Below are positions 1 to 39,266 of a stretch of DNA of 64,000 nucleotides, one piece after another. The notes under the pieces are model-generated. The model was not told where the DNA came from, ran no database searches, and worked only from the letters and a program-made list of their open reading frames with translations. The translations under genes and the position numbers were made by a program. The DNA comes from Vulcanimicrobiaceae bacterium. Lineage in GTDB: Bacteria > Vulcanimicrobiota > Vulcanimicrobiia > Vulcanimicrobiales > Vulcanimicrobiaceae. Position 1 is the stretch's first letter. Each line of letters begins with the position of its first letter. Where the stretch lies: NCBI GenBank assembly GCA_035279385.1, contig DATEHZ010000061.1, positions 4,310-68,309 of the forward strand, written 5' to 3'.

Positions 1-1
1 G

Positions 2-1093: not shown

Positions 1094-1635
1094 GGATGGC
1101 TTCACACTGGACGTACGCGGGATGGTTTACCGTGCTCCGCTTATACGTCGGCGCGTTCTGGCTCTCACACGGCATTCCAAAATTCTTGGACTCCGCCGCC
1201 TATATGCCGCCGTCCGGGTACATGCCGCAAATCGTGCAGAAAGCCGTGATGTCGCAGGCCGGCTTTTATCACGACTTTCTGCTGAACGTCGTCACCCCGA
1301 ACATCAACGTTTTCGCGGAATTGGTGCGCGTGGGCGAAGTGCTCGTCGGGTGCAGTTTAATTTTGGGCGTCTTCACACGCTTCGGCGGTTTGGCCGGATG
1401 CTTCTTGGCTCTCAACTATATGGCGGTGAACGGCGAATTCTCGACTTGGACGACGATCGGATCGCTCGAGGCCGCTGCGTTCGTACTCTCGTTCTCGATG
1501 CTCGCCATTCCGGCCGGACGCGTCGCCGGCGTCGATGCGATGCTGGTGCGGCGCCCGCGCGTTCGTAAAGACCTCGTTATTCCGGAGCTCGTCGAAGAGC
1601 CGCCGACACGACCGGTCGACTCCAGCTCGACCTGA
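1090..1635 (+). CDS. DoxX family membrane protein
   Basis: ATGA overlap with the upstream stop. Four hydrophobic segments with a DoxX-like pattern (LRLYVGAFWLSHGIPKF, AELVRVGEVLVG). Confidence 0.7.
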   Translation: MRMASHWTYAGWFTVLRLYVGAFWLSHGIPKFLDSAAYMPPSGYMPQIVQKAVMSQAGFYHDFLLNVVTPNINVFAELVRVGEVLVGCSLILGVFTRFGGLAGCFLALNYMAVNGEFSTWTTIGSLEAAAFVLSFSMLAIPAGRVAGVDAMLVRRPRVRKDLVIPELVEEPPTRPVDSSST

Positions 1636-1667
1636 GCGGGCCCGCGCAGGCTCCACTTGCGTCGGTG

Positions 1668-1676
1668 TGGTATAGT
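1668..1676 (+). promoter_or_regulatory. Possible extended -10 promoter (TGgTATAGT) for the tRNA-Ser/tRNA-Arg pair
   Basis: TGGTATAGT lies about 16 nt upstream of the tRNA-Ser 5' end. No good -35 element. Confidence 0.3.
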
Positions 1677-1691
1677 GGTCCGGTCCGCCAC

Positions 1692-1782
1692 GGAGAGGTG
1701 GGTGAGTGGCTGAAACCAGTCGTTTGCTAAATGACCGACGGTCAAAAACCGTCCGAGGGTTCGAATCCCTCCCTCTCCGCCA
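1692..1782 (+). tRNA. tRNA-Ser(GCU), CCA encoded
   Basis: Hand-folded: acceptor GGAGAGG/CCTCTCC, anticodon arm GTCGT-TTGCTAA-ATGAC, long variable arm, T-arm GAGGG-TTCGAAT-CCCTC. Confidence 0.9.
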
Positions 1783-1848
1783 CGATAACTAGCGATATTT
1801 ATCGTAGAGGGGAAAAGAAAAAACGCGACGTAGCAGTCGCGGCTGTGT

Positions 1849-1925
1849 GCGGTCGTAGCTCAATTGGATAGAGCAACAGGCTACGAACTTGTAGGTTGGG
1901 GGTTCGAGTCCCTCCGACCGCGCCA
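1849..1925 (+). tRNA. tRNA-Arg(ACG), CCA encoded
   Basis: Acceptor GCGGTCG/CGACCGC, anticodon arm ACAGG-CTACGAA-CTTGT, T-loop TTCGAGT. Confidence 0.9.
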
Positions 1926-1931
1926 TGTGAA

Positions 1932-1966
1932 AAGAGCCCGGCGATCACGCCGGGCTCTTTCGATTT
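1932..1966. terminator. Hairpin terminator shared by the tRNA pair (+) and CDS 1974..2642 (-)
   Basis: Perfect 12-bp stem AAGAGCCCGGCG-atca-CGCCGGGCTCTT followed by tcgattt. Confidence 0.7.
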
Positions 1967-1973
1967 GTACTCC

Positions 1974-2642
1974 TTAGTGCGCGAACGAATCCGTTTGTAA
2001 TTGAACGTCGATCGTACGTTCCACGGTTTGGCTCGTCGAGGGATGCAGCATCGTCTCTTCGTGCAGCGATTTTGGAACGCTCATCGCCGTGTCGTAGACG
2101 ATGGTGCCCTCGGTATGTTCGTTGCCCGAGGCCGCGTCCTGGTCGCGAACCTCGATGTTTTCGGTAATTCTTGCAAGGCCGTTCTGGTTGCTTACGATCG
2201 TGAAGTCCGTCGTTTCTTTCAAACCGCGCTTGCCGCCGGTTTGCAGTTGCCAGTGATTCTTCTGATCCAGATTGCCGGTATCCACGAAATTGCGCCCGAG
2301 TATCCGGAGCAGTTGGTACATTTCCGGATCGATCGATGAGTTTGCCGAGCACTCGACGTGCGTGTTTCCGTACACGGCGCACATGACCGGATCCACGAAA
2401 CGCGCGCGATCCGTGGACGATTTCTCGGAAATGCGAATGACCAGACCGCCGTCGTTCGCAACCGCCACGACGTCCACGGTAATCGTGCCTTTGTCGGTGC
2501 CGGCGCTCCAAGACGTCCCAACGCCCGGCGCACCCGTTCCTATGCCGCCGTAGTGGAATTCGGAATCGCTGCGAACGTTCGACGTGTAGTTGTACACCAA
2601 GTGGCGCAGAGCCGGTGCAGACATCGGAATAGGCATCAACAC
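1974..2642 (-). CDS. Hypothetical protein
   Basis: 222-aa ORF with ordinary composition (not an Arg/Ala shadow). No family recognised. Confidence 0.55.
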   Translation of the reverse strand: MLMPIPMSAPALRHLVYNYTSNVRSDSEFHYGGIGTGAPGVGTSWSAGTDKGTITVDVVAVANDGGLVIRISEKSSTDRARFVDPVMCAVYGNTHVECSANSSIDPEMYQLLRILGRNFVDTGNLDQKNHWQLQTGGKRGLKETTDFTIVSNQNGLARITENIEVRDQDAASGNEHTEGTIVYDTAMSVPKSLHEETMLHPSTSQTVERTIDVQLQTDSFAH

Positions 2643-2716
2643 ACCCCTATCAATATGCGCTCCCCGGTCGCCTAAAGCGGCGGCCGAGCGTGCGGAGGAC
2701 TTTCCGACGGGAACCC

Positions 2717-2746
2717 TTGAAACCTGGTGGCCGGGTTTGCTAGAGT
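2717..2746 (+). promoter_or_regulatory. Possible sigma70-type promoter for tRNA-Met
   Basis: TTGAAA-18 nt-TAGAGT, ending 27 nt upstream of the tRNA. Confidence 0.35.
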
Positions 2747-2772
2747 AGAGCGTCGAACGGCGGACGTCGTAC

Positions 2773-2844
2773 GGCTCGGTAGCTCAGCGGTAGAGCGGGG
2801 GACTCATAAGCCCTAGGTCGTAGGTTCAAATCCTACCCGAGTCA
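2773..2844 (+). tRNA. tRNA with CAU anticodon (elongator Met, or Ile2 if lysidinylated); no encoded CCA
   Basis: Acceptor GGCTCGG/CCGAGTC, anticodon loop CTCATAA, T-arm GTAGG-TTCAAAT-CCTAC. G1-C72 argues against an initiator tRNA. Confidence 0.8.
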
Positions 2845-2850
2845 GATTTC

Positions 2851-2883
2851 GAAGTCCGGAGCGCTTGCAGTGCTCCGGACTTC
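2851..2883 (+). terminator. Hairpin after tRNA-Met
   Basis: 12-bp stem GAAGTCCGGAGC...GCTCCGGACTTC; weak T tract. Confidence 0.55.
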
Positions 2884-2953
2884 TCGATTCATGCCGGATC
2901 GAAACCTGAAGGGAATAGCCGGGGTCCGGTAGGATGAAGGCAGGCCTACGACT

Positions 2954-3190
2954 ATGTCTACAATTCCGTGCGACTTTTGTCCCCATCCCGTCGATCGCAA
3001 TCAGATGGAAGAGATCGAAATCTCCCATTACGTCCCGGACAGCTCCGGAGATGATTTGGCGTACGCCCGGACGTACTTCTTCGGGCATCCGGACTGCGTG
3101 CGGAAATTCTACCGCGGACTGGTCGACCACAAGCTTGATCTGTTCAAGCACATCCCCAGCGCCGGCAATACGCAAGAAGGCCAGCGCTGA
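2954..3190 (+). CDS. Small Cys/His-containing hypothetical protein
   Basis: 78-aa ORF between two tRNAs with coding-like composition. CDFC...HPDC suggests a zinc-binding knuckle. Confidence 0.45.
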   Translation: MSTIPCDFCPHPVDRNQMEEIEISHYVPDSSGDDLAYARTYFFGHPDCVRKFYRGLVDHKLDLFKHIPSAGNTQEGQR

Positions 3191-3197
3191 TCCATAT

Positions 3198-3272
3198 GCG
3201 CTCGTAGCTCAATTGGATAGAGCGCTGCCCTCCGAAGGCAGAGGTCTGCGAGTTCAAATCTCGCCGAGCGCG
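3198..3272 (+). tRNA. tRNA-Arg(CCG), no encoded CCA
   Basis: Acceptor GCGCTCG/CGAGCGC, anticodon arm CTGCC-CTCCGAA-GGCAG, T-loop TTCAAAT. Confidence 0.9.
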
Positions 3273-3293
3273 TGAAAGTGCCATAGGGTTGTC

Positions 3294-3728
3294 ATGGAGC
3301 GACCGTACAGTTGCTCCATGCGACCCTGTTGTGCATGCGGTGTGTTGTACGAACCAAATCGCGATAAAAGTTACCGGTGCCCGAAGTGCAAGAGTGACTA
3401 CAATAGGCAGCACTACGAGGCGAACAAGGCGGCATACGTGGCACGCGCTGCCGCAAGAAAGATGCAAGTTCTTCTTGATTTGAATCTGCGGCTCTGCGAA
3501 TATCTCGATTCGCATCCGTGCGTTGACTGCGGTGAACCGGATCCCGTGGTATTGGAGTTCGACCACGTAGCAGAGAAATCAAACGACATTGCAGGCATGG
3601 TCGGAAGAGGCCATTCTTGGCGCGCGATCTTACGCGAAATCGCAAAGTGCGAAGTTCGTTGCGCGAATTGTCATCGCCGGGTAACGGCGAAACGTGCAAA
3701 CTGGATTCGGTATCGATTGAGTGGATGA
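3294..3728 (+). CDS. HNH (His-Me finger) endonuclease-like protein
   Basis: Cys clusters plus CVDCGE..LEFDHV...CANCHRR, a classic HNH layout. Overlaps the tadA start by 8 nt. Confidence 0.7.
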   Translation: MERPYSCSMRPCCACGVLYEPNRDKSYRCPKCKSDYNRQHYEANKAAYVARAAARKMQVLLDLNLRLCEYLDSHPCVDCGEPDPVVLEFDHVAEKSNDIAGMVGRGHSWRAILREIAKCEVRCANCHRRVTAKRANWIRYRLSG

Positions 3729-4161
3729 ATACTACATCCGCCGCGCCATGGATCTGGCAGCGCGTGCGGAAGAAGCCGGCGACGTTCCCATAGGCGCGGT
3801 GCTCGTAAGCGGTGACGTCCTAGTCGAGGCAAAGAACGAGAAAGAAAGCCGGCCGGACGCGACGGCGCACGCCGAAATGCTGCTGCTGCAGCAGGCGGCG
3901 CGCACGCTGAACGCTTGGCGGCTCTCGGATGCGACGGTGTACGTGACGAAGGAGCCCTGCGTGATGTGTGCCGGTGCGATGGTCGCGGCGCGTATCAAGC
4001 GCCTCGTCTACGGTTGCCCCGACCCGAAGGGCGGCGCCGCGGGCAGCGTCTTGGACGTCGTGCGGCATCCGTCGCTGAATCACCGCATGGAGGTCACCGC
4101 CGGAGTGCTGGCCGCCGAAACGGCCGCGCAGCTCCAAGAGTTCTTTCGGAAGCGCCGCTAG
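3721..4161 (+). CDS. tadA: tRNA adenosine(34) deaminase
   Basis: CDA-fold motifs HAE and PCVMCAG, about 146 aa, GTG start. Confidence 0.9.
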   Translation: MDEYYIRRAMDLAARAEEAGDVPIGAVLVSGDVLVEAKNEKESRPDATAHAEMLLLQQAARTLNAWRLSDATVYVTKEPCVMCAGAMVAARIKRLVYGCPDPKGGAAGSVLDVVRHPSLNHRMEVTAGVLAAETAAQLQEFFRKRR

Positions 4162-4217
4162 CAAGAGTTTTGCTCGCCCGCGCGAATCAGCGGTCTTTTG
4201 TCAGCCGTACTGCGCCT

Positions 4218-4305
4218 GGAGAGGTGGTCGAGTGGTTGAAGGCACCCGCCTCGAAAGCGGGCAGACGTGATGAGCGTCTCGAGAGTTCGAATCTCTCCCT
4301 CTCCG
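4218..4305 (+). tRNA. tRNA-Ser(CGA), no encoded CCA
   Basis: Acceptor GGAGAGG/CCTCTCC, anticodon arm CCCGC-CTCGAAA-GCGGG, long variable arm. Confidence 0.9.
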
Positions 4306-4315
4306 AATGTACGAG

Positions 4316-4346
4316 GAACCCGGCTCTTAGGGCCGGGTTCTTTCTT
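4316..4346 (+). terminator. Rho-independent terminator after tRNA-Ser(CGA)
   Basis: 9-bp stem GAACCCGGC/GCCGGGTTC followed by tttctt. Confidence 0.65.
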
Positions 4347-4458
4347 CATCGCAGCGCGATCTCCGTCGCGTTGTCGAATCCCAGACCGAACAGCACGCCG
4401 ATCGGATACACGTGCGCGCTACACTTCACCATCCCGAGTGCCGGCCGCAGGATCTTCC

Positions 4459-6477
4459 TTAGGATGCCGCCGTGCAATTCGGCATCGAGCGGGATTTGTC
4501 TGGGTCAAGCGGCGATTGCCGCCGTGCGGCCGTAACGTAATACTGCTCGACGTAGTCACGCACCATGCGGCTTGCCGAAAATCTCGGAGCGAGCTGCGAG
4601 AGGCCGGCGCGGATCTTGGCGACCCACGCCGTGGGAATGCCGCGTTCGTCGCGATCGAAAAACGCCGGAACGACGTCGCGCTCCAGTATCTCGTAAAGCC
4701 GCTGCGCGTCGGCTTCGTCGTCCGCCGCATCGGGATCGCGATCGCCGAGCGCCCAGCCGAACTGCGGCGCATAGGCTTCGTCCCACCAGCCGTCCAGCGT
4801 CGAGAGGTTCAAGCCGCCGTTCATCAGCGCTTTCATGCCGCTCGTGCCGCAGGCTTCCCACGGGCGGCGCGGCGTGTTGAGCCAGAGATCCGCACCTTGC
4901 GTGAACGCGGACGCGATGCCGAGATCGTAATCCGGTACGAAGAGCGCTCGGCCCGACACGTCCGGGCGCTGCGTGAATTCAACCCACCGGCGTATCGCCG
5001 CGCGGCCCTGCGTATCGCGCGGATGCGCCTTGCCGGCGATGAGCAGCCGCAGGGGACGCTTGGAATCGTTCAGCAGCAGCGCCAGGCGATCGGGATCGCT
5101 CAGCAACAGCGTGACGCGCTTATATTCCGTAAATCGACGCGAGAGGCACGCGACCATCGCGTTCGCCTCGAAGCCGAAGCGCTGTGTGAGCCCCGCGCGA
5201 AGCCGCTCGCGCGCGCTCCAGAGTTCCGCGTCACTCATCGCCGCGATCTTTGAATCCAGGTCGCCGTCCTCATCGCAGGCGAACGCGCTCCACGACGGCA
5301 CGTGAACGCCGTTCGTTACGTGCGAGATCGCAACGTCCGTAAAGATCGTCCGGCTGACCTGTTCGTGCAGCGCGCTAACGGCGTTGACGGCAGCAGAGCC
5401 TTCGACGGCCAGATACGCCATGTTGAACGGCGCGTTTGCGCCGGCGCCCTCGCGACCGAGCGCGAGCAGATCCCCGATTGTGACGCGCGCCTCACGCGCG
5501 TACTCGCGGAAATACTTCGAGACCAATTGCGGCTCGAAGCGATCGAAGCCCGCCGCCACCGCGGTATGCGTGGTGAAGAGATTGCCCCCGCGCGTCGCGC
5601 GGAGCGCTTCGTCGAACGCGCATCCGGTGAGCGCGGCAAACGCGCGGGCGCGTTCGAGGACGGCGAACGCGGCATGGCCTTCGTTCAAGTGGCACGCGGC
5701 ACATTCGATTCCCAGCCGCTCGATCGCGCGCCAGCCGCCGATGCCCAGGACGATTTCCTGCTGCAGGCGCGTCTCTTGATCGCCGCCATACAGGTCCGCC
5801 GTTATCGCGCGATCTCGCGCGGCGTTACGCGGATCGTTCGTATCGAGCAGATAGAGCGGTACGCGTCCGACTTGCGCCTTCCACACCCGCGCGTGCACGG
5901 TGCGTCCCGGAAACGCAAGCGCGACCGAGAACTGTTCGCCGCCCTCGGTAAGCACGCCGGAGATGGGCAGCGACGCCGGGTCGTTGTACGGATAGCTCTC
6001 GCGCTGCTCGCCGCCCTGGTCGATCGCCTGGCGGAAGTAGCCGCGTTGGTATAACAGACCGACGCCCACAACCGGCACGCCGAGATCGCTCGATGCCTTC
6101 AAGACGTCGCCGGCGAGCACGCCGAGGCCGCCCGCATAGATCGGCAGCGCTTCGCTTGCGCCGAACTCCATGCTGAAATACGCAATCGCACCGGCGATTG
6201 CGCCGGCGTGCGTAACGTCGAACCACGTGCGGCGCTCGAGGTATCCCTCGCGCTCCTGCGCTAAGCGAGCGAGCGTGCGCAGAAATGCCGGATCGGCACC
6301 GAGTTCGCGCAGGCGGCTTTCGGAAGCGCCACATAGGACGCCCCAGCCATTGCGCGTTGCTTCCCATGCGGGTTTGTCGATCGTTTCCCACAATTCGTCT
6401 GCGTCATGACAAGAAAGCCAGCGCAGGTCGAGCGCCAGATCGGTGAGCGAGTGTAATACATCGGGCAGCGTACGCAC
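4459..6477 (-). CDS. glgP: Alpha-glucan (glycogen/maltodextrin) phosphorylase, GT35
   Basis: YFSMEFG..LPIYAGGLGVLAGD, GKAHPRD and TSGMKALMNGGLN (PLP-lysine region). Confidence 0.85.
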   Translation of the reverse strand: MRTLPDVLHSLTDLALDLRWLSCHDADELWETIDKPAWEATRNGWGVLCGASESRLRELGADPAFLRTLARLAQEREGYLERRTWFDVTHAGAIAGAIAYFSMEFGASEALPIYAGGLGVLAGDVLKASSDLGVPVVGVGLLYQRGYFRQAIDQGGEQRESYPYNDPASLPISGVLTEGGEQFSVALAFPGRTVHARVWKAQVGRVPLYLLDTNDPRNAARDRAITADLYGGDQETRLQQEIVLGIGGWRAIERLGIECAACHLNEGHAAFAVLERARAFAALTGCAFDEALRATRGGNLFTTHTAVAAGFDRFEPQLVSKYFREYAREARVTIGDLLALGREGAGANAPFNMAYLAVEGSAAVNAVSALHEQVSRTIFTDVAISHVTNGVHVPSWSAFACDEDGDLDSKIAAMSDAELWSARERLRAGLTQRFGFEANAMVACLSRRFTEYKRVTLLLSDPDRLALLLNDSKRPLRLLIAGKAHPRDTQGRAAIRRWVEFTQRPDVSGRALFVPDYDLGIASAFTQGADLWLNTPRRPWEACGTSGMKALMNGGLNLSTLDGWWDEAYAPQFGWALGDRDPDAADDEADAQRLYEILERDVVPAFFDRDERGIPTAWVAKIRAGLSQLAPRFSASRMVRDYVEQYYVTAARRQSPLDPDKSRSMPNCTAAS

Positions 6478-6534
6478 GCTGCTCGCATTCTCGATGAGCG
6501 CGCATGTCCATGCGTACGCTTTGATCGCGTATCG

Positions 6535-7128
6535 TTAAATGAGCGGGACGTTCGGCGCCGCGGTTTTGGGATAGAGCCCGAGCGTGCGCGGGTCGTCGTG
6601 AATCTCGACTTGCCGTTTGAACGGCGCGAAACCGGAACGAATATAGAACGGCAGCGCGTCCGGATGATCGAGCGTGCAGGTATGCAGCCACAGCCGCCGT
6701 ATCGGCCGCGACCAGGCAGCATCGAGCGCGTAGTTCATGAGTTTGCGGCCGGCGCCCGTTCCGCGCAAACGCTCGCTCACCCCGAACAGGCGCACTTCGC
6801 ATTCTCCCGCTTGGCGAAAGTCGAGATGGAGGATGCCCTCGTCCCGGCCGCCGGTCAAAAGCGCGTAGATCGCAACCTTCGGGTCACGAACCTGCTCCGC
6901 GAATTGTTCGTCGGTTATGAGCAGCGGCGACTGCCACAGATACGGTTCTCCGACGTGTCGCACCAGCGCGCGGTATCGCCGCGCATCCGGCTGCGTGAAC
7001 GCTTCGATCGTCAGCGCAGGCGACACGCGCTCCGGACGCGGATCCGCGCGTTCGCGCATCTCGAGGCACGTGACGACGTTCGCGAGTTTTCCCGGTGGAA
7101 GATCGGTGTAGCCGTCAGCGAGCGACAT
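6535..7128 (-). CDS. GNAT family N-acetyltransferase
   Basis: Acetyl-CoA binding-like motif RLRGTGAGRKLM within a GNAT-sized C-terminal domain. Confidence 0.7.
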   Translation of the reverse strand: MSLADGYTDLPPGKLANVVTCLEMRERADPRPERVSPALTIEAFTQPDARRYRALVRHVGEPYLWQSPLLITDEQFAEQVRDPKVAIYALLTGGRDEGILHLDFRQAGECEVRLFGVSERLRGTGAGRKLMNYALDAAWSRPIRRLWLHTCTLDHPDALPFYIRSGFAPFKRQVEIHDDPRTLGLYPKTAAPNVPLI

Positions 7129-7348
7129 ACCGGTATTGGCCCGGCTGCCACTCGCACACGCTCGCGTCGCGCATGACGAACGACTCGCAGCCGTCGACGT
7201 CGGGATTAAAATCCGCGTTCAGACGCTTTGTCGCGTCCCAGTCGACTGCGGGCTCCTGGCGCGCCGCGCCGCGCGCTTTCACGTACGAGAACTGGGGATT
7301 TTTCGTAAGCGCGTTGAGCGCTTTGGCCAAGCGTTGCGCGTCTGTCAT
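7115..7348 (-). CDS. Hypothetical small protein
   Basis: 77-aa ORF with a 14-nt overlap onto the GNAT start. No family recognised. Confidence 0.4.
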   Translation of the reverse strand: MTDAQRLAKALNALTKNPQFSYVKARGAARQEPAVDWDATKRLNADFNPDVDGCESFVMRDASVCEWQPGQYRYVAR

Positions 7349-7410
7349 GCTTGCCTTGGTTCCTCGCTCCCGAGGGGCTTCCCCTCGCCCATTGAAGAGG
7401 TAGCGGTACT

Positions 7411-8124
7411 ATGGCCCTGTCCCATATCGTCATGCATTTTGCGCTGTGCAACTCGGCCGCGCGCCTCGGCCCGCAGGCCGACTTGCCGGTGCACATCGTC
7501 GTCACCGACAAGATCAATCGCGACGTCGTCGATCAAACCGCGCGCGTTTCGCGCTACGAAGGCAACACGAGCGCTGCAGAGTTCGACGTCGCGTGGGGCA
7601 TCTATCGCGCGACCGTAACGATGCGCGCGGGACACGCCACGTGCAGTGCGGTGCAATACTTTGCGGTGCAGCCGGATCACAATCGCACGTTGACCGTGCA
7701 GCTGCGCGACGGCAATTCGCCCGCGCCGGTTCCGACGCTGATCACCGGAACCGCGCCGTTCGCGTTCTCGTACGTGGAGCCGACGGTACTGGTGTTCACC
7801 GCCGGAAGTACGAAATGTAACGGCCCCGTCGGCAATCCGGTCGACGTGAACATCGATCAAGAGACGGACAACGACGGTTACTACGCGTCGGTGTTTCCGA
7901 GCCCCGCACTTGCGGCGAAAGGTCCGTTCGTGCTCGCCGTGCGTCTGAAAGACTCACAGGGCGGCTATCATTATATTCGCGTTCCGGCCGAGTTTCTCGG
8001 CATGTCGCCGCGCTGGCCGTCCATGGGCCAATTCGACGTAACCGAAGACGTGGTCGACTACGTGCAGGACAAACCCGAAGACACGCTGCTGTGTCCGCGC
8101 CTGTATAAGACGTCCGTGCACTGA
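7411..8124 (+). CDS. Hypothetical protein
   Basis: 237-aa ORF with non-shadow composition. No family recognised. Confidence 0.5.
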   Translation: MALSHIVMHFALCNSAARLGPQADLPVHIVVTDKINRDVVDQTARVSRYEGNTSAAEFDVAWGIYRATVTMRAGHATCSAVQYFAVQPDHNRTLTVQLRDGNSPAPVPTLITGTAPFAFSYVEPTVLVFTAGSTKCNGPVGNPVDVNIDQETDNDGYYASVFPSPALAAKGPFVLAVRLKDSQGGYHYIRVPAEFLGMSPRWPSMGQFDVTEDVVDYVQDKPEDTLLCPRLYKTSVH

Positions 8125-8140
8125 CGTCGAAACGTCCCGG

Positions 8141-9793
8141 ATGGGCAACGGGACATCGGTTTTCCTCGCCGACCTCACCATTGCGCTGGTTGCGGCGAGC
8201 ATACTCGGCTCGCTTGCGCGCGCGCTGCGCATCACGCCGATTCTCGGGTACGTCGTCGCGGGAATCGCCATCGGACCGTTCACGCCGGGCTACCGTACCG
8301 CCGACGCATCGCTGAGCGGTCTGGGTGAACTCGGGCTCATTCTGCTGCTCTTCAGCCTCGGCTTAGGCTTCTCGGTGCGGGAACTGCGGCACGTGGGCAT
8401 CATCCCGAGCATCGGCAACGTCGTGCTGATGGCGGCCTTCGGCGCAGTCACATGGGCGCTCGCGACGCTCGTGCACTTCCCGCATCCGATTACGCTCGCG
8501 CTCGCATTCACGCTCTCCAGCACGGCCATCGGCGTCGCGCTGCTGCAAACCTTCGGACTGCTCGATAAACGTCCCGGACAGGCTGCGGTCGCATTGCTCG
8601 TAATGCAGGATTTGCTCGCCGTGCTCATCCTCGTCGCGACGACGACGCCGCCCGAGCAGCTCACGCCGCTCGGCTCGCTCGTTCCCCTCGTGAAAGCGGC
8701 GATATTCGTGATCGTCGCGCTCGTGCTGGGCGCGACGGTGCTGCACCGAATCGTCATCGGCTTTTTGCGGCGCGCGCCCTCGGAAGCGATGATCGCGTTT
8801 TGCACCGCCGTCGCGCTGGTTGCCGCGTGGCTCGGACACTTGGCGGGTCTTTCGTTCGAGTTCGGCGCGTTCGTCGCCGGTGCGGTGACCTCGGAAGCGG
8901 CGGGAAGCCGCATCGTGCAGTCGATAGTCGCTCCCTTCCGCGAACTCTTCGTCATGCTGTTCTTCGTGTCGATTGGGACGCTCGTCGACGTCGGAGCGCT
9001 GGCCGCGTCGTGGCAAGCAGTCGTCATTATCGGAACGGGCTTGGTCCTCGTGCGCTTCGGCGGATGGTACGCTCTCAGCCGCTTCGTGCATCAGCGCACC
9101 GGAACCGCAATCGCGCTCGGCATCGCGCTCATACCGCTCGGCGAATTCAACGTGGTCCTTGCGAACGACAGCTTTCTCGCGCACCGCTTGAATTCGAACG
9201 AGTACGGCTCGGCGATCGGCGCCACGCTGCTTTCCATCCTGCTCGCCGCACTGGCGGCGCGCATCGTGGCGCCGCGCAGAACCGCGATGGACGGCGCCGC
9301 ACGTGCGCCCTCCGAGACGCACGCGAACGTGCCGCCCGCGATCGTCATTCTCGGATACGGACGCGCGGGGCGCACCGTCGGCGCGCTCTGTCTGCGCGCC
9401 GGCATCGCGTTTTCCGTCGTCGAACTCGACGTCGACGCGCTGCGGCTCGCGCAGCAAGAGGGCGTGGACGCGCACTATGGCGACGGCGCGGATCCCAGCG
9501 CGATCGCGCGCGTGCTCACACCGCAAACGCGGATCGTGCTGAGCACCATTCCCGACTCTGCGATCAACGCCGCAATCGCGCGGCGATTGGCAACGCACGG
9601 CGTGCGCGTTGTGTCGCGCGCGGAACGCCTGCGCGACGTGCCGATGGTGCGCAAAGCCGGTGCGAAGGACGTGCTCGTTCCCGAAGCGGAAGGCGCGTTC
9701 GGTTTTGCGCAAGCGGTCCTCGCGGAGCTCGGCTTAACGGAGGATCATATCGATGCGCTGATCCGCGAGCAGCGCGCGGCCCTGGCTTACTGA
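8141..9793 (+). CDS. Cation:proton antiporter (CPA2/Kef-type) with C-terminal TrkA-N/RCK domain
   Basis: Na_H exchanger-like N-terminus (ILGYVVAGIAIGPFTPG), about 12 TM segments, Rossmann motif ILGYGRAGR. Confidence 0.85.
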   Translation: MGNGTSVFLADLTIALVAASILGSLARALRITPILGYVVAGIAIGPFTPGYRTADASLSGLGELGLILLLFSLGLGFSVRELRHVGIIPSIGNVVLMAAFGAVTWALATLVHFPHPITLALAFTLSSTAIGVALLQTFGLLDKRPGQAAVALLVMQDLLAVLILVATTTPPEQLTPLGSLVPLVKAAIFVIVALVLGATVLHRIVIGFLRRAPSEAMIAFCTAVALVAAWLGHLAGLSFEFGAFVAGAVTSEAAGSRIVQSIVAPFRELFVMLFFVSIGTLVDVGALAASWQAVVIIGTGLVLVRFGGWYALSRFVHQRTGTAIALGIALIPLGEFNVVLANDSFLAHRLNSNEYGSAIGATLLSILLAALAARIVAPRRTAMDGAARAPSETHANVPPAIVILGYGRAGRTVGALCLRAGIAFSVVELDVDALRLAQQEGVDAHYGDGADPSAIARVLTPQTRIVLSTIPDSAINAAIARRLATHGVRVVSRAERLRDVPMVRKAGAKDVLVPEAEGAFGFAQAVLAELGLTEDHIDALIREQRAALAY

Positions 9794-33287: not shown

Positions 33288-33648
33288 AATCGCGGAGTAC
33301 GCCTGTAAGCCGGATTCTGTTCCCCTCGCAAAGCTCGGGGCGGCGGCCATCTCTCTGGGACGCGCGTTGCCGTGCGTCTCGATGCGACTTTGCTCGTTCG
33401 GACGGGCAGTCCGGCCTCTTACGAGGCGTATCGAGCGGTCTTGCTTCAGGTGGGGTTTACCCGAGCGCACGTCACCGTGCGGCTCCGTGAGCTCTTACCT
33501 CACGATTTCACCCTTGCCTTGCGGCGGTATGTTTCTGTGGCACTTTCCTTCGGGTCGCCCCGACAGGACGTTATCCTGCACCCTGCCCTGTGAAGCCCGG
33601 ACTTTCCTCAAGCACGTTGCCTGCGGCCGTCCGGCGTACTCCGCGGTC
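33288..33648 (-). ncRNA. rnpB: RNase P RNA, bacterial type A
   Basis: The reverse complement contains GAGGAAAGTCCGGGCTTCACAGGGCAGGGTGC, AAGGGTGAAA, GGTAAGAGCTCAC, GGTAAACCCCACC and ACAGAATCCGGCTTA. 13-bp P1 between 33291-33303 and 33633-33645. Confidence 0.85.
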
Positions 33649-33670
33649 GTTTAGTGTATCACATCAAAGA

Positions 33671-33704
33671 AACGGCCGCGTGCGAAACGCGGCCGTTCGT
33701 TTTT
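33671..33704. terminator. Hairpin terminator, probably the original terminator of tRNA-Ala(GGC)
   Basis: 10-bp stem AACGGCCGCG-tgcgaaa-CGCGGCCGTT with T tracts on both strands. Confidence 0.65.
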
Positions 33705-33710
33705 AAATTC

Positions 33711-33730
33711 TGGAGGCAAGGAGACTCGAA
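33711..33730 (-). repeat. Displaced 20-nt copy of the tRNA-Ala(GGC) 3' end (att-like direct repeat, distal copy)
   Basis: TGGAGGCAAGGAGACTCGAA is identical to 36250-36269 inside the tRNA. Confidence 0.75.
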
Positions 33731-33863
33731 AACGTCTCGGTGCAGTCCTCGCGGGTTTTTAGCGGTCGCTGGCGCGGTTGCCTTCCGGTAAAGCGGCCGT
33801 CGAAGGCCAGGGACGGACGCGATGAGCCAGATCGAATGTCCTCGAATAGCCCGCTAAGAATCG

Positions 33864-34922
33864 CTACAGCGAATTGAAGATGAAGGTGGTCCGACGTAGG
33901 TGGTTCAGCGCCAGCATCGGTACTTTGTCCTCGGCGAGTTCGAGGAACTCGCGAACGAGAAAGTATTCAACGGTGCGCTCCCGCTGCATCTCGATCCAAT
34001 AGTCTGGTGAATATCGTGCGGCGACGCTGATCGCGTACATGACCGCGAGGTAGATAGCGTATTCGCTAATCGCCGTCTGTTTTATTGTTGGAAGAAAGAA
34101 CCGGCGGCCGTCGTGAACGATCGTGGTTGCGAGAAGCTCGTCTTCCGGTGAGCGGACAGACCCGTTGACCGAAGCTCGATCCCACGTAATGCGGTTATCG
34201 ACGAAGATGGCGTCGGAACCGCCTTGCTCGATCAGGTACGCCCCAACGGCGATATTGTCGCGGATCCAACCGGGCCCGCTTGGCACGTGATCTTGGATGT
34301 CGACCTCGATGTTTGGAAACGAACGCAGGGCCTCGTCGAGATAATCGTCGCCCGGAACGTCGCCGGTCCAAACGGCCTCAATCACTCGGGGCCGTAGGCG
34401 CGCGTGCGGAAGTGAATGACGGAGTTCAGGGATTGCTTCGAGGAAGTCGCGCACCTGGAATGTTTGTCCCGAGAGGGACGCACCCCCGAACGCGGCGTTG
34501 ATTGTACCGAAGGCTTGTGTACCTCGCCCCGTGTTAATCCGCGCCTCTAAGAGCGGCGAACTGCTGCGGAATTCAAAGGCAACTTCAAGACCATGCGCGG
34601 CCTCGCGCTTCGAAAGTTGCTCGCCGCTCAGCGTAGTGAAGGCGACCGCGTTGCCAAGCCACAGCGTTCCATAGTACAGGAGAACCGCGGCCGTAAAATC
34701 GTCATCGACGTCCTCCCACGCCTTCACGTTGTCGTCGGCCAGCGTGACGGCGTTGAGGAACGGTTTCAAAAACTTCGCATCGGCGTGTGGCTCGCGAAAC
34801 AATACCTCGGCGGCGTCGCGGCCCGCGAAGCGGGAGAGTTCGTGCCAAAGCGCGGAATGCGGCGCGCGACTGCGACGCTCATCGAGCGGCCAAACTTCAC
34901 GTAACCGATTGAGACTGTTCAT
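33864..34922 (-). CDS. YaaC-like family protein (uncertain)
   Basis: 352 aa. N-terminal LLYYGTLWLGNAV and C-terminal EYAIYLAVMYAISVAARYSPDYWIEM resemble my recollection of B. subtilis YaaC (LLFYGMVQLMKA.. / HYLLLYNLSMISRYETEWWNEL). Confidence 0.5.
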   Translation of the reverse strand: MNSLNRLREVWPLDERRSRAPHSALWHELSRFAGRDAAEVLFREPHADAKFLKPFLNAVTLADDNVKAWEDVDDDFTAAVLLYYGTLWLGNAVAFTTLSGEQLSKREAAHGLEVAFEFRSSSPLLEARINTGRGTQAFGTINAAFGGASLSGQTFQVRDFLEAIPELRHSLPHARLRPRVIEAVWTGDVPGDDYLDEALRSFPNIEVDIQDHVPSGPGWIRDNIAVGAYLIEQGGSDAIFVDNRITWDRASVNGSVRSPEDELLATTIVHDGRRFFLPTIKQTAISEYAIYLAVMYAISVAARYSPDYWIEMQRERTVEYFLVREFLELAEDKVPMLALNHLRRTTFIFNSL

Positions 34923-34985
34923 GTTCTGCGTCTCCAGCGGTCAGGCGCGATACAGAGCGGCCCTCCCCGATTAGGCGTGATTTGG

Positions 34986-36089
34986 TTATCTCGTTCTTGC
35001 ACTTGCTGATACAATGCCAAACCCGGTTCGTAATGACATGATTATGCCCATCACGAGACAAGTGCCCAGCAATATGAGCATTAACATTCCGCTTGGCGCT
35101 GATAGTAGCCGAAACGTAAGGATCAGGATTATTAGGCGAACCAGGTCTCGGTGCCAATCTGCAGAGTAATGGGTCAGCACTTTCTGGACCTCGACTTGTC
35201 GCCCGTACTCACGGTGAATGGATTCAAGCGACGTTTGTATGTGGCGCCCCGATTTGAGGATTTCAGCGCTCTCCGAATGCACCCGTTCCTGGGCCGCTTT
35301 TACCTTTGCAATAATCTCGTCTTTTGCGTGCCGCCGAGGCGACTCGGACGAGGACTCGTCGCTGTCAAGCTTTGCTATCGCCTCAACAAACGCAACGGCC
35401 GTGGCGCGCGTTGCTCGCTTGCGTTTCGAGGGCGATAACCGCTCATAATCAGCGAGGACTTCATTCGCGGCTTCGATGATCTCACGGCGCTTGGTCATGT
35501 CCGCTGTTTGTGCGCTGAACTGGTTTACGGCGGCGTCAAGATCGCGGTTTAGCGTTTGCTGCTCACTCGCAATGACTGGTTGCAGCCAATTGCGATACAC
35601 GGACAGGGAAACGCTTATCACAAGCAGGATCGTTGCAAAATATGCTACGGCTTTCGCCGGCAGGCCGGGAATGAGGAGCATCAGGCTGCCAAGCATAGTA
35701 GTTTGAAAGCAAACGGCGATCATTTCCGAGTTTGCCAGCAGCCAGTATAGCGAGCGCGACGAGAAATAAGCCCCGAAGGAGATGCCTTCAACTGGTGGGC
35801 CTGCTAGCGACAGCATCCCGGCGCTTAAGGTTAACACGGCAAAAACTATGACCCATAGCGTTGCTGAGACCGTCGCAAGCGATATTAATAGATCGTGTAT
35901 TAGTGCGGCGTCTATGACGCCGGACTTTGTTGTGAATCCGGAAAGGAACGAAAAAACCGCGGTATGCGGTATCGTCGTGTAGTGCGTAATAACGAGCGGA
36001 ACCACCCAAAACGCTAGAAGCCAGATTAGCGGCCACGGTACCGAGATCGGTTCTTTAACGTCCGTCGACGCTTCGTCCCTGACGCTCAT
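34986..36089 (-). CDS. Multi-pass membrane protein with a central coiled-coil domain
   Basis: About 5-6 N-terminal TMs, about 130 aa of charged helical region (NRDLDAAVNQF...KVKAAQERV), two C-terminal TMs. Low GC. Confidence 0.6.
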   Translation of the reverse strand: MSVRDEASTDVKEPISVPWPLIWLLAFWVVPLVITHYTTIPHTAVFSFLSGFTTKSGVIDAALIHDLLISLATVSATLWVIVFAVLTLSAGMLSLAGPPVEGISFGAYFSSRSLYWLLANSEMIAVCFQTTMLGSLMLLIPGLPAKAVAYFATILLVISVSLSVYRNWLQPVIASEQQTLNRDLDAAVNQFSAQTADMTKRREIIEAANEVLADYERLSPSKRKRATRATAVAFVEAIAKLDSDESSSESPRRHAKDEIIAKVKAAQERVHSESAEILKSGRHIQTSLESIHREYGRQVEVQKVLTHYSADWHRDLVRLIILILTFRLLSAPSGMLMLILLGTCLVMGIIMSLRTGFGIVSASARTR

Positions 36090-36246
36090 GCTTTACATTC
36101 CGGCAGTACGAACACCTTAGTGGCGCTCTTTCTTCCAGACACATAGCGTGCCCTAGCATGGCGGCTCAGCGGCTCCCCGCCGTTGCCTGCGGCAACGAAA
36201 TGGCAAACGATCCCCCGGGGAAGACCGAGGGATCGTGCTTGGAAAC

Positions 36247-36322
36247 TGGTGGAGGCAAGGAGACTCGAACTCCTGACCCTTACGCTGCCAGCGTAATGCT
36301 CTACCAACTGAGCTATGCCCCC
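36247..36322 (-). tRNA. tRNA-Ala(GGC), CCA encoded
   Basis: Reverse complement GGGGGCATAGCTCAGTTGGTAGAGC..TTACG-CTGGCAG-CGTAA.., G3:U70, ends ..TGCCTCCACCA. Confidence 0.9.
36250..36269 (-). repeat. Proximal copy of the 20-bp att-like repeat (inside tRNA-Ala)
   Basis: Identical to 33711-33730. Confidence 0.75.
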
Positions 36323-36362: not shown

Positions 36363-36435
36363 TGGAGATGAGGAGGCTCGAACTCCTGGCCCCCTGCTTG
36401 CAAAGCAGGTGCTCTACCAACTGAGCTACATCCCC
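36363..36435 (-). tRNA. tRNA-Ala(UGC), no encoded CCA
   Basis: Reverse complement GGGGATGTAGCTCAGTTGGTAGAGC.CCTGC-TTTGCAA-GCAGG.., G3:U70. Confidence 0.9.
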
Positions 36436-36573
36436 GCGTTTTATGGCGACCGGCGCACGTTCGCAAAGGGCGGCCGACTCACCTCCCCGGCCGGTAGTCC
36501 TAGTTTCAGATTCCTTTCATCACTTTGCGATACCCACTACGTAGATGGATACTGAAGATCGGAGGCGAGGACG

Positions 36574-37308
36574 ATGATCCACGCACTGCTCTTGGCCGCC
36601 ATCGGAGCAATGCCGCCGTGTTGGGATCTCTTCGATTCTGCACTTCGCCACAGCGCGAATGCCGCGCATCCGCCGTACGTAACCTACAGCGAGCGCATTG
36701 CGGTTTCGGAAGACGGCAACCCGGTCTTACGCAGCACCGCGCACGTCGATTATCGCGACGACGGTATCGCGCGCGTTTCGGACGAACGGTTCAACTTCGA
36801 GCCGTTCGTCACGCACCACGCCGAACCGGGTCCGCCCGAGCTTGGCCCGTACGGCAAGGGACGCGCCATGTGGTTGCCCGATTCGGACGCTTTGCCGATC
36901 ATCGCCCAAGTGCGCACGCTTGGCGCAATCACCTGCACGGTCGAAGATGAAGAACCGTACAAGGCGCACGACACCTATCATCTCGTCTTCACCGGCGCGT
37001 CCAATGAACGTCCGACGCTCAAAGACTTGTGGATCGATACGCGATCGCACGAGATTTGGAAACTGATCGTTACGGGTCCGGTTGCGTTTTGGGACGATAC
37101 GCAAGGGAACCGCGCGCTGGCGGAATTTCAAGTAGAACTGGGCTACAGCGGGCCGTATCTTGTGGTGAACCACGTCGTGTGGTCGTACGACCGCCGCGAA
37201 TTCTCGCAGCAGGTGCACTATTTCGGCGAGTACACCTTCACCGGATATGCGTTTCCCTCGGAACTGCCCGCCTCGTATTTCGGAGACGCCGCGGCCGCAC
37301 TGAAATAA
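36574..37308 (+). CDS. Hypothetical protein, paralog of 9787..10527
   Basis: SD GGAGG upstream, N-terminal signal-like segment, shared motifs with the other copy. Confidence 0.6.
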   Translation: MIHALLLAAIGAMPPCWDLFDSALRHSANAAHPPYVTYSERIAVSEDGNPVLRSTAHVDYRDDGIARVSDERFNFEPFVTHHAEPGPPELGPYGKGRAMWLPDSDALPIIAQVRTLGAITCTVEDEEPYKAHDTYHLVFTGASNERPTLKDLWIDTRSHEIWKLIVTGPVAFWDDTQGNRALAEFQVELGYSGPYLVVNHVVWSYDRREFSQQVHYFGEYTFTGYAFPSELPASYFGDAAAALK

Positions 37309-37338
37309 AAGAAGGACGCGAGGCGCGTCCTTCCGACA

Positions 37339-37415
37339 TGGTGGGCCATCCAAGGCTCGAACTTGGGACCTCATGCTTATCAAGCATGCGCTCTAACCAA
37401 CTGAGCTAATGGCCC
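37339..37415 (-). tRNA. tRNA-Ile(GAU), CCA encoded
   Basis: Reverse complement GGGCCATTAGCTCAGTTGGTTAGAGC.CATGC-TTGATAA-GCATG...GATGGCCCACCA. Confidence 0.9.
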
Positions 37416-37531
37416 GAACCAAGACCTAATGTTACCACACCGCGCAAGCCCCCCCTGCCGAACTTGTCTGGGCTAGAAGTCAGGCCGCCTGCCGCCCGAT
37501 GCGCCTCGGACGCGGCCGCGGCGATTTTCGG

Positions 37532-37822
37532 TTAGATCATCGCAATGTATTTTTTAAGGGCGGCATCGTCTTCTTTGAGCTGCTCGAGCATCATGTCGCG
37601 CAGCACGTTTGCTTCGCGCTCCAGCTCCGAACGCTCTTCCATTTCTTCATCGAATTGCGACTGCTGCGCCGTAACGGCATCGCTCTTCGGCGTCTTGGCA
37701 GCGCGCGTCGTCCCACGCGCTGCCACGGCTGCACGATCGATCACTCGGTGATCGACTCGATGAACTTCTTGGTGATTTGATTGTCGGCTTTGCGCTGCCA
37801 CAAAGCAAGGCAGGATAACCAC
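37532..37822 (-). CDS. Small hypothetical protein (start uncertain; possibly GTG at 37744)
   Basis: The C-terminal 60-70 aa are clean and helical (..EEMEERSELEREANVLRDMMLEQLKEDDAALKKYIAMI). The N-terminal third looks non-coding. Confidence 0.4.
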   Translation of the reverse strand: MVILPCFVAAQSRQSNHQEVHRVDHRVIDRAAVAARGTTRAAKTPKSDAVTAQQSQFDEEMEERSELEREANVLRDMMLEQLKEDDAALKKYIAMI

Positions 37823-37847
37823 AACATTATCGGTAACTTGCTCAACA

Positions 37848-39266
37848 ATGGCCGATAAATGTTGGCTTTACCTCGTTGTATCATCCGAAGCGCAGGAAGA
37901 CACGCTGGACGCGCAACGACGATGGGGGTTCGAGGAGGCCGCCCGTATCGGTGTGCGCGTTGATCCGGACGGCGTCTTTGAAGGAGTCGCCTCCGGCAAG
38001 CACGGCGCCCGAACGATCTTACTCGACCTGATCGCGAGGTTGCGCGCGCTCCCGAAGTCTGAGCGCCCGGCGCGTGTGCTGATGAATCGCCTGGACCGGA
38101 CGGGTCGCATGCCGCTAGACGCGATTTCTGCGCTGAACGACATTCGCAAACTCGGAGTCACAATCCGCGATCGGATTAACGGTGATTATACGTTTCAGCG
38201 CGTGATCGACCAAGTTGGGCCTATCTTCCAGCTGCTGCAGGCAGGGTTCGAAAACGAAGTTCGTTCCGATCGGTCGAGAGCCGGCCACAAACGCCGTCGC
38301 GACGAGGGAAAATTGATTCCGAGTAAACCGCCGTACGGCGTGAAGCGTGATGAACGCGGCAAAGCGATTCCGGATCCGAAATGCGCACGCGTTGTTCGAA
38401 AAGTCTTTGAGCGTTGGGCTGACGGCGATTCGCCTGCGGCGATCCTGCGATGGCTGCGCGAAAAGGCTCCGCCGCGCATCGGTCGCGGTGGCAAAGAGTA
38501 CCACATTCGGTGGAGCCTGTCCCATGTCTACAAAATGGTCGTGCTGGGCACTTACCGCGGCGTGGTAATCGACGAAGATCTCTGGCAGCGCGCTCAAAGT
38601 AGAAAGCGCAAGTACAGCCGTCCCGGGCCAGGCGGATACGTTTATCCATTTTCTGGCATTAAATGCACGTGCGGGCACACGCTGCGGGCCCGAACGAACG
38701 TATCGGCGTCACGCTATCGCCGAAGGGACGGCTCGGAAGTCATCTACACCCGCAGTCCAATCGTGTGGTACGTCTGCGGATCGCTGAAGCACGACGGCGT
38801 GAGGTATCTCTCTTTTCGTGAGGAGCGCATCGAAGAGCAGTGGCTAAAGATGCTGCGAATACTTTCATTGAAAAATGCTCCGTGGCCGACTTCGCAGCGT
38901 GCAACGAACCTGGGTCCGCGCATTGAAATGCTGACGCGCAGGCTCGATGTGCTCTTGGCACGACGTGATCGCGTCCATGCGGCTTTTGAAGATGGTACCT
39001 ACGATACGAAAACTATGCAGCGCCGACTCGCGGCCATCGACGAAGAGGAACGCAAACTGGAGGCCGACATCGCGGCGATACAGGCGCAGTATGAACGTGA
39101 ACGACAACGGCTCATTGATCGCGATCGCGCCGTGGCGTTGATAAAAAACGCTGCGAAGACGTACGCGAAGGCCACTCGCGAGGAACGTGCCCGGCTAAAC
39201 GCGGCTCTGTTCGCAGCGCTCGGACATCCCGTCATCACTGACGCATATCGCTTGACGCTGCCCTAA
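37848..39266 (+). CDS. Large serine recombinase (integrase)
   Basis: Resolvase catalytic domain (YLVVSSEAQ..LDRTGR), recombinase domain, Cys-rich zinc ribbon, C-terminal coiled coil. 472 aa. Confidence 0.85.
   Translation: MADKCWLYLVVSSEAQEDTLDAQRRWGFEEAARIGVRVDPDGVFEGVASGKHGARTILLDLIARLRALPKSERPARVLMNRLDRTGRMPLDAISALNDIRKLGVTIRDRINGDYTFQRVIDQVGPIFQLLQAGFENEVRSDRSRAGHKRRRDEGKLIPSKPPYGVKRDERGKAIPDPKCARVVRKVFERWADGDSPAAILRWLREKAPPRIGRGGKEYHIRWSLSHVYKMVVLGTYRGVVIDEDLWQRAQSRKRKYSRPGPGGYVYPFSGIKCTCGHTLRARTNVSASRYRRRDGSEVIYTRSPIVWYVCGSLKHDGVRYLSFREERIEEQWLKMLRILSLKNAPWPTSQRATNLGPRIEMLTRRLDVLLARRDRVHAAFEDGTYDTKTMQRRLAAIDEEERKLEADIAAIQAQYERERQRLIDRDRAVALIKNAAKTYAKATREERARLNAALFAALGHPVITDAYRLTLP

Follow-up and report, generated by a model that had tools for sequence, protein, structure and literature searches.

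A two-gene islet between att repeats at a tRNA-Ala gene of an uncultured Eremiobacterota bacterium, and the case for reading its genes as independent mobile-element passengers

To our knowledge, two-gene defence systems of the Kiwa type always occur as pairs, and the function of the PF14175 family, named after YaaC of B. subtilis, has not been described, so that membership in that family says nothing about mechanism. Among described mobile-element derivatives, the cis-mobilizable elements (CIMEs) are those in which the att copies have been kept and the recombination genes lost (PMC5704250). Here we examine a small islet in a 64,000-nucleotide stretch of contig DATEHZ010000061.1 from a Vulcanimicrobiaceae bacterium (the window), which lies between direct repeats at the 3' end of a tRNA-Ala(GGC) gene and carries two genes, one for an integral membrane protein (gene 1) and one for a soluble YaaC-family protein (gene 2). 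An earlier note on this DNA had put the two genes forward as a candidate two-gene defence or abortive-infection system. In the reading that we consider probable, the islet is what is left of a decayed island at tRNA-Ala, and the two genes that survive on it are mobile-element passengers independent of each other and do not form a dedicated two-gene defence system.

The evidence that carries this reading is the company that the two families keep. Co-occurrence of homologues of both genes had been named beforehand as the test of a two-gene system. At six distinct YaaC loci besides the window (homologues of 34-64% identity and one pseudogene), neither a gene 1 homologue nor a comparable protein with several transmembrane (TM) helices lies upstream of the YaaC gene (0/6), and none of the three contexts of gene 1 relatives has a YaaC gene beside it. 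Since gene 1 and gene 2 are thus never neighbours elsewhere, there is probably no dedicated two-gene defence system here; adjacency on a tiny islet is insufficient to call one.

The islet itself is well delimited. It is read on the minus strand and spans 2,519 bp between two att cores, which are copies of a perfect 20-nt direct repeat, TGGAGGCAAGGAGACTCGAA; by our own estimate about 1e-5 such repeats would be expected by chance in 4.3 kb. One copy forms the 3' end, with acceptor and T-arm, of tRNA-Ala(GGC), which is still intact despite the insertion. The co-oriented pair and its 63-nt gap were recovered at exactly the coordinates proposed earlier, and the description of the pair as the only cargo of a tiny tRNA-targeted cassette also held, there being no other credible gene between the repeats. 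The features, in the order in which the islet genes are read, are as follows.

36363-36435, minus strand: tRNA-Ala(TGC), upstream on the islet-gene strand (tRNA scan)
36247..36322, minus strand: tRNA-Ala(GGC), the integration target (ARAGORN; Rfam tRNA, 67.9 bits)
36250..36269, no strand assigned: att core beside the tRNA, attL-like (20-nt direct repeat, family D4; sequence read)
33731..36249, minus strand: the islet, a CIME-like remnant (list of open reading frames, ORFs; repeats; GC content at third codon positions, GC3)
34986..36089, minus strand: gene 1, integral membrane protein of 367 aa (ORF, homologues, AF2 model)
34923..34985, minus strand: spacer of 63 nt between gene 1 and gene 2, with a GGAG ribosome-binding site (terminator scan)
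33864..34922, minus strand: gene 2, soluble YaaC-family protein of 352 aa, PF14175 (Pfam, homologues, AF2 model)
33711..33730, no strand assigned: distal att core, attR-like, with the original host sequence beyond it (direct repeat)
33670..33698, no strand assigned: bidirectional hairpin terminator (terminator scan on both strands; inverted repeat I11)
33290..33642, minus strand: RNase P RNA class A, the host flank at the far side of the islet (Rfam RF00010, 249 bits)

No integrase, recombinase or transfer gene was found inside the islet, neither cargo gene matches a recombinase or transfer family, and no tyrosine integrase occurs among the neighbouring window ORFs that were scanned. GC3 is 0.59 in gene 1 and 0.69 in gene 2, against 0.73-0.80 in the flanking host genes, and the GC content of the islet is also below that of its flanks. 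Proteins identical to those of gene 1 and gene 2 are recorded from a metagenome-assembled genome of Candidatus Baltobacteraceae (Eremiobacterota). With attL and attR both retained and no integration or transfer genes between them, the islet resembles a CIME in its sequence organisation.

The arrangement of signals around the genes suggests how they might be expressed. The hairpin beyond gene 2 is a strong one that lies within 12 nt of the distal att copy and scores as a terminator on both strands. We infer that the tRNA-Ala operon originally ended here and that the islet displaced this terminator by 2.5 kb, so that it now stands behind gene 2 and serves, or could serve, the islet genes; an empty site would have the tRNA-Ala 3' end joined directly to ...gaatttaaaaacgaacggccgcg. 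A GGAG sequence is placed 11-14 nt ahead of the ATG of gene 2, and no terminator-like site was detected in the spacer by the terminator scan. Between the tRNA and gene 1 neither a terminator-like nor a sigma-70-like site was found. Because the genes point as the tRNA does and nothing resembling a terminator separates the tRNA from gene 1, co-transcription is probable: gene 1 and gene 2 would share a transcript that starts either at an unrecognised promoter or, by read-through, in the tRNA operon and that ends at the displaced terminator. The proposed history is that an element integrated at the 3' end of tRNA-Ala(GGC), placing the islet between the tRNA and its presumed original terminator, and that the integrase was later lost and both att copies were kept. 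Each of the two gene families would move between mobile elements as a single-gene unit with varying neighbours, and the adjacency of gene 1 and gene 2 would be a by-product of island decay or accretion, not the mark of a membrane effector joined to a sensor. From the neighbourhoods alone, the functions of the two proteins might be guessed to lie in conflict between elements or in maintenance, for example in exclusion or defence.

Gene 1 encodes a membrane protein whose predicted topology (hydropathy and AF2 model, pLDDT 70.6) comprises four N-terminal TM helices (19-39, 61-93, 105-139 and 145-165) with one short amphipathic helix besides, a cytoplasmic insert of about 145 aa made of long charged helices (approximately 166-307), and two C-terminal TM helices (311-327 and 334-366). 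The charged helical region and the C-terminal pair of TM helices thus agree with the earlier description, and the five to six N-terminal TM helices proposed there are reduced to four. When 1.84 billion representative proteins were scanned exhaustively with HMMER, three relatives were returned: P0010, with 66% identity by BLASTP (67% in the HMMER scan) and an E-value of 1e-150; P0011, with 44% and 1e-84; and P0013, a marginal relative at 27% and 7.5e-5, which has the ATLWV and CFQT membrane motifs in common with gene 1. The homologues at 66% and 44% identity establish that gene 1 is a real gene and, judged from its sequence, it is a member of an ultra-rare orphan family with four known members. 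Conservation is uneven along the protein: in comparison with P0010 the membrane blocks are 73-82% identical and the cytoplasmic insert 55%, and in comparison with P0011 the values are 49-55% and 28%. Pfam, NCBIfam, PHROG and PADLOC gave no significant family match for gene 1. A hit to DUF6594 (E = 0.005, 17.3 bits against a threshold of 30) was obtained with one of the four family members and was taken as chance. The top Foldseek matches were engineered fusions of G-protein-coupled receptors with BRIL, at a TM-score of about 0.2 and a root-mean-square deviation above 20 A; these were dismissed as trivial topological look-alikes, since both consist of TM helices, an inserted helical bundle and then more TM helices.

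Gene 2 had been described as YaaC-like, and this was borne out. The protein matches PF14175 with an E-value of 1.1e-20 and 74.7 bits against a gathering cut-off of 27, over profile positions 57-307 of 307, and by this profile it is classed unambiguously as a new, divergent member of a known family. Eight homologues at 34-64% identity, found in a collection of 5.8 billion clusters with a profile search included, show that gene 2 is a real gene; together they form a subfamily, all nine members of which match PF14175. Its members share an invariant MNSLN start, LLYYG..WLG, HGL, IN..GG, RD and ARYxPxxWI; LLYYG..WLG and ARYxPxxWI, the two motifs to which the family resemblance had originally been pinned, are likewise invariant in the subfamily. 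The (L/F)YYG and ARYxPxxW signatures are also present in YaaC proteins of Streptomyces, of Pseudarthrobacter and of enterobacterial plasmids; in gene 2 the first lies in helix 2 and the second at the break of helix 3. The MNSLN pentapeptide is kept despite synonymous codon changes and despite ATG, GTG and TTG starts (window, L001, L003, L004, L005, L009 and L010), and the DNA 5' of the start codon is not conserved; the synonymous changes and the unconserved upstream DNA together indicate selection on the peptide. This suggests a functional N-terminal peptide, for instance a putative docking motif or degron.

The AF2 model of gene 2, which is of good quality (pLDDT 80.6, pTM 0.85), predicts disorder for residues 1-21, followed by a helical bundle formed of two hairpins (helices 49-97 and 287-342), between which an alpha/beta insert of about 185 aa is set. 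As in gene 1, the insert evolves fast and the core is better conserved, with identities to the closest homologue of 79% in the block of helices 1 and 2, 68% in that of helices 3 and 4, and 54% in the insert, the last falling to 23% in the most distant homologue. Foldseek searches of the PDB and BFVD gave nothing below E = 1, and a profile search of PDB sequences with gene 2 likewise gave nothing. The compact Foldseek matches were confined to the four-helix-bundle proteins 2rld and 2gsc (probability 0.35-0.57, target-normalised TM-score 0.42-0.56, E > 1). The idea that YaaC might be a hidden recombinase and so explain the absent integrase was rejected, as there was no recombinase among the fold-search matches and YaaC-family genes are also found far away from any att site. 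In the literature searched, YaaC-like, PF14175, LPO_1073 and PF28206 appear in no functional context.

The six YaaC loci outside the window differ in what stands upstream of the YaaC gene and in their wider surroundings.

L001/L002: P0002, 64% identity; upstream a soluble protein of 76 aa, overlapping by 4 nt; beside a type IIG restriction-modification enzyme
L009: P0003, 61% identity; upstream a soluble protein of at least 144 aa, 15 nt away
L003: P0004, 53% identity; upstream a protein of 173 aa; on an element with a primase-helicase
L004/L011: P0007, 46% identity; upstream a beta-lactamase-fold protein of 784 aa; terminase, ParB, methylase and nSTAND genes nearby
L005: P0008, 34% identity; upstream an ATPase-TOPRIM protein of the OLD/GajA/AriA type, 543 aa, 41 nt away
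L012: YaaC pseudogene; upstream an ORF of 158 aa; 3' of integrase and serine-recombinase genes

One upstream protein among these loci has two hydrophobic segments. In an all-against-all BLASTP comparison of 42 neighbouring proteins no family was common to different YaaC loci, and nucleotide similarity between the window and the other loci of both YaaC and gene 1 ends at the ends of the ORFs. The exact gene 2 protein recurs in six further metagenomic samples (DRR832409-11, SRR5195131, SRR28085346 and ERZ27257066), and in each it is the same locus at 99.97-100% identity, so that these samples are not independent contexts. Neither gene 1 nor gene 2 has a relative among the JGI metagenome contigs or in IMG/VR. 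Searches by tblastn with the window proteins found no match in plasmid and phage collections, the subfamily of gene 2 being too divergent for relatives to be found there in this way. At two of the six other loci the direct neighbour is a type IIG restriction-modification gene or an OLD-type nuclease, and most of the others stand in mobile-element contexts, a sample far too small for statistics. What stands of the earlier assessment of the two families, then, is that they are accessory genes of mobile elements which sometimes lie beside defence-type genes; their status as a conserved pair does not stand.

Two of these loci are of interest in themselves. In L005 (positions 1-2690, JGI 3300086414) an OLD-type gene is followed after 41 nt by the YaaC-like gene, a partner with no PADLOC match, and this may be an undescribed two-gene arrangement of the OLD family. 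In L012 (positions 6001-6600, from the Vulcanimicrobiota metagenome-assembled genome palsa_1529) the YaaC-like pseudogene is frameshifted or truncated and lies 3' of a tyrosine integrase gene and a small serine recombinase gene. Being a pseudogene in a second Eremiobacterota-related genome, it indicates that the YaaC-like family decays as well as spreads.

The relatives of gene 1 keep different company again. P0010 is encoded on a complete island of 9,041 bp with a tyrosine integrase (L006, positions 1-9073 of a Logan SRR19971020 contig), which lies between direct 25-nt repeats of a tRNA 3' end (6-30 and 9047-9071), the tRNA being other than tRNA-Ala(GGC). The island also encodes a CHAT-like protein and has, about 75-110 nt inward of each att copy, a further 20-nt repeat, TGCAACCGTTTTGCAACCGT, whose copies may be arm sites of the integrase. 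Upstream of the P0010 gene, and overlapping it by 4 nt, is a gene of the LPO_1073/Vpar_1526 family (NCBIfam NF045477, E = 1e-15), and 3' of it is a gene for a protein of 429 aa unrelated to YaaC; hhalign probabilities of the YaaC profile against the L006 neighbours of P0010 were below 0.2%. Neither Vpar_1526-like nor 429-aa-like remnants were detected in the window by tblastn. For P0011 there is no co-oriented gene in the 289 nt upstream, and P0013 stands alone among integrase and transposase fragments.

More distant YaaC proteins, reached via a Streptomyces homologue, extend the picture to plasmids and transposons. Among the matches inspected or listed, the YaaC genes of Streptomyces plasmids mostly lie no more than about 20 kb from the ends of linear plasmids, and at all four inspected Streptomyces loci (L024-L026 and L013) the YaaC gene adjoins a large HA-domain or DEAD/DEAH helicase; that of S. 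venezuelae also adjoins an 'ABC-three component system'. A uracil-DNA glycosylase gene is found near YaaC in one Streptomyces locus and in the Pseudarthrobacter locus, where the plasmid-borne YaaC gene adjoins a recombinase and IS256. In pC45_002 of Enterobacter hormaechei and related IncF plasmids (L028, 3584-5104) a Tn3-family transposon carries YaaC as its passenger, immediately behind the resolvase; this hypothetical protein of 506 aa has the YaaC signatures LYYGA... and LSILVRYRPSIW, plus an additional N-terminal domain. No TM partner was found beside the YaaC proteins of the Streptomyces, Pseudarthrobacter and Tn3 loci. YaaC-family genes are thus typically passengers of mobile elements, placed at the ends of short operons and with varying partners.

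On its other side, the tRNA target site borders on a region with features of its own. A gene for a large serine recombinase (472 aa, with Resolvase and Recombinase domains) is found some 430 nt from tRNA-Ile(GAT), and after it come a helix-turn-helix (Cro/CI-like) gene and many ORFs for which Pfam gave nothing; this region, at window positions 37339-39266 and beyond, probably belongs to a second integrated element or prophage, separate from the islet. The genes for tRNA-Ile(GAT) and tRNA-Ala(TGC) are usually paired in the spacer between 16S and 23S rRNA. No rRNA match was found here between 28000 and 45000, and the two tRNA genes (window 36363-37415) are separated by an opposite-strand ORF of 244 aa (36574-37308). 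Pfam gave no match for this ORF; its product shows weak similarity (E = 0.004) to the protein of 784 aa encoded upstream of YaaC at L004, in the LolA-like C-terminal part of the latter.

Several observations weigh against reading the two genes as independent passengers. A co-oriented gene ends no more than 82 nt upstream of the intact YaaC gene at all six loci whose upstream DNA can be read (the window and five others), with gaps of -4, 15, 41, 63, 71 and 82 nt, and no gene of the unit follows YaaC; a close co-oriented gene at every locus is more than would be expected of a fully autonomous gene. The sample is small, with six other YaaC contexts and two to three informative gene 1 contexts, and the homologues are distant (27-66%), so that turnover of partners within a real modular system could be conceived. 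Two intact genes as the sole cargo of a decayed island would be the outcome expected of an addiction or defence module, and the roles that we propose for gene 1 and gene 2 are themselves putative. Some of these points are what a working two-gene module of the abortive-infection or toxin-antitoxin type would draw on, a possibility that we judge to be clearly the less likely. Under it YaaC would be a promiscuous, constant last component with interchangeable upstream effectors, acting as sensor, regulator or antitoxin; gene 1 would be a depolarising or permeabilising membrane effector, and elsewhere an OLD-type nuclease or another protein would take its place. The co-orientation of the sole surviving cargo, the short spacer and the ribosome-binding site of gene 2 fit such a module, as do the partner of OLD/GajA/AriA type at one locus and the type IIG restriction-modification gene at another, and the combination of a conserved core with a variable insert in both proteins would suit a recognition surface. 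However, no second pairing was found among the 5.8 billion clustered proteins, the 1.84 billion representative ones or their contexts, the upstream partners are mutually unrelated, and the beta-lactamase-fold and tiny soluble proteins among them do not look like effectors. A promoterless gene at the ends of operons would yield an equal pattern of co-orientation, and the conserved N-terminal peptide of YaaC speaks for a partner that stays constant instead of one that varies. Searched at E <= 1, PADLOC-DB v2 likewise returned no model for either cargo protein or for the nine YaaC-like proteins, in keeping with the earlier statement that the pairing is no described system. More speculative, and rather doubtful, is the fuller scheme in which YaaC would be the constant last component of a new and highly modular class of conflict systems borne by mobile elements, its upstream effector being here an OLD-type nuclease, there a membrane protein, a beta-lactamase-fold protein or a small protein, its alpha/beta insert sensing and its N-terminal peptide docking on a constant surface of host or effector, with the pair as a working instance that has a pore-forming or depolarising effector of six TM helices. 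If the pair were a real system, it would be a new membrane-effector defence module and would provide a first functional handle on the widespread and uncharacterised YaaC family.

Two other explanations would dispense with any partnership between the genes. Gene 2 might act alone as a HEPN-like abortive-infection nuclease, gene 1 being irrelevant to it, which we regard as improbable. HEPN domains carry an Rx4-6H motif at the end of helix 3 and inserts between helices 2 and 3 (PMC3710099). The model of gene 2, with its two hairpins and the insert between them, has a helix order that fits, and the conserved R303 is located at the C-terminal end of the third helix, at a proline break, so that the positions of both motif and insert correspond to those in HEPN domains (PMC3710099); the compact Foldseek matches, too, are solely to four-helix bundles. 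Yet the defining histidine is absent, the invariant motif of gene 2 being R303-Y-x-P-x-x-W309 (R-x5-W); no Foldseek match falls below E = 1, the Pfam HEPN families are unmatched by all nine YaaC-like members even at E <= 10, YaaC is not mentioned in the HEPN survey, and the insert of about 185 aa is some three times as long as the longest in that survey (60 aa). The resemblance seen in the model is therefore best taken as a lead and not as a classification. Very unlikely indeed is an ordinary cellular role, in the envelope or in housekeeping, with a position beside the tRNA that is due to chance. In favour of it may be cited yaaC of B. subtilis, which we take to lie in a conserved chromosomal region near guaB; against it stand the att repeats that bound both genes and their atypical GC3, the extreme rarity and patchiness of both families, and the nature of all the other contexts that were found, each of them a mobile element, a plasmid or a variable region. 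Independent passengers on a decayed island remain, in our judgement, the most probable account of the islet.

How the islet relates to the systems described so far can be put in terms of these results. Like Kiwa (KwaA and KwaB), to which the pair had been likened, it has a gene for a protein with several TM helices followed by one for a soluble protein on a mobile element, but the likeness is superficial: the pair has no PADLOC match to Kiwa or any other system and it is not conserved. The OLD-family systems Gabija (GajA/GajB), PARIS (AriA/AriB) and AbiL are approached by L005, in which the YaaC-like gene (34% identity to gene 2) takes the position of the second gene after an OLD-type gene; the window, in contrast, has no OLD-type gene, and no YaaC-like protein matches the GajB, AriB or AbiLii models. 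Gene 2 conforms to PF14175, the 'YaaC family protein' of NCBI, in having both signatures, in being soluble and in its typical length, and differs in belonging to a rare subfamily of nine proteins with an invariant MNSLN start. The L006 cluster has the closest relative of gene 1 (66%) on an island that is likewise at a tRNA 3' end, but it has a tyrosine integrase, other partners and another target tRNA. The nearest counterpart of the islet as a whole is the CIME. CIMEs were defined in Firmicutes, whereas the host of the islet is an uncultured member of the Eremiobacterota (Ca. Baltobacteraceae), and for the islet descent from an integrative and conjugative or integrative and mobilizable element, like mobilisation by a related element, is putative. 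With perfect 20-nt att copies around 2.5 kb at a tRNA 3' end and no integrase or transfer gene, the islet shares the form of a CIME. Element remnants of this sort are ordinary, but as an att-flanked tRNA islet that lacks an integrase this one is a clean case, and it comes from an uncultured member of a phylum that has been little studied.

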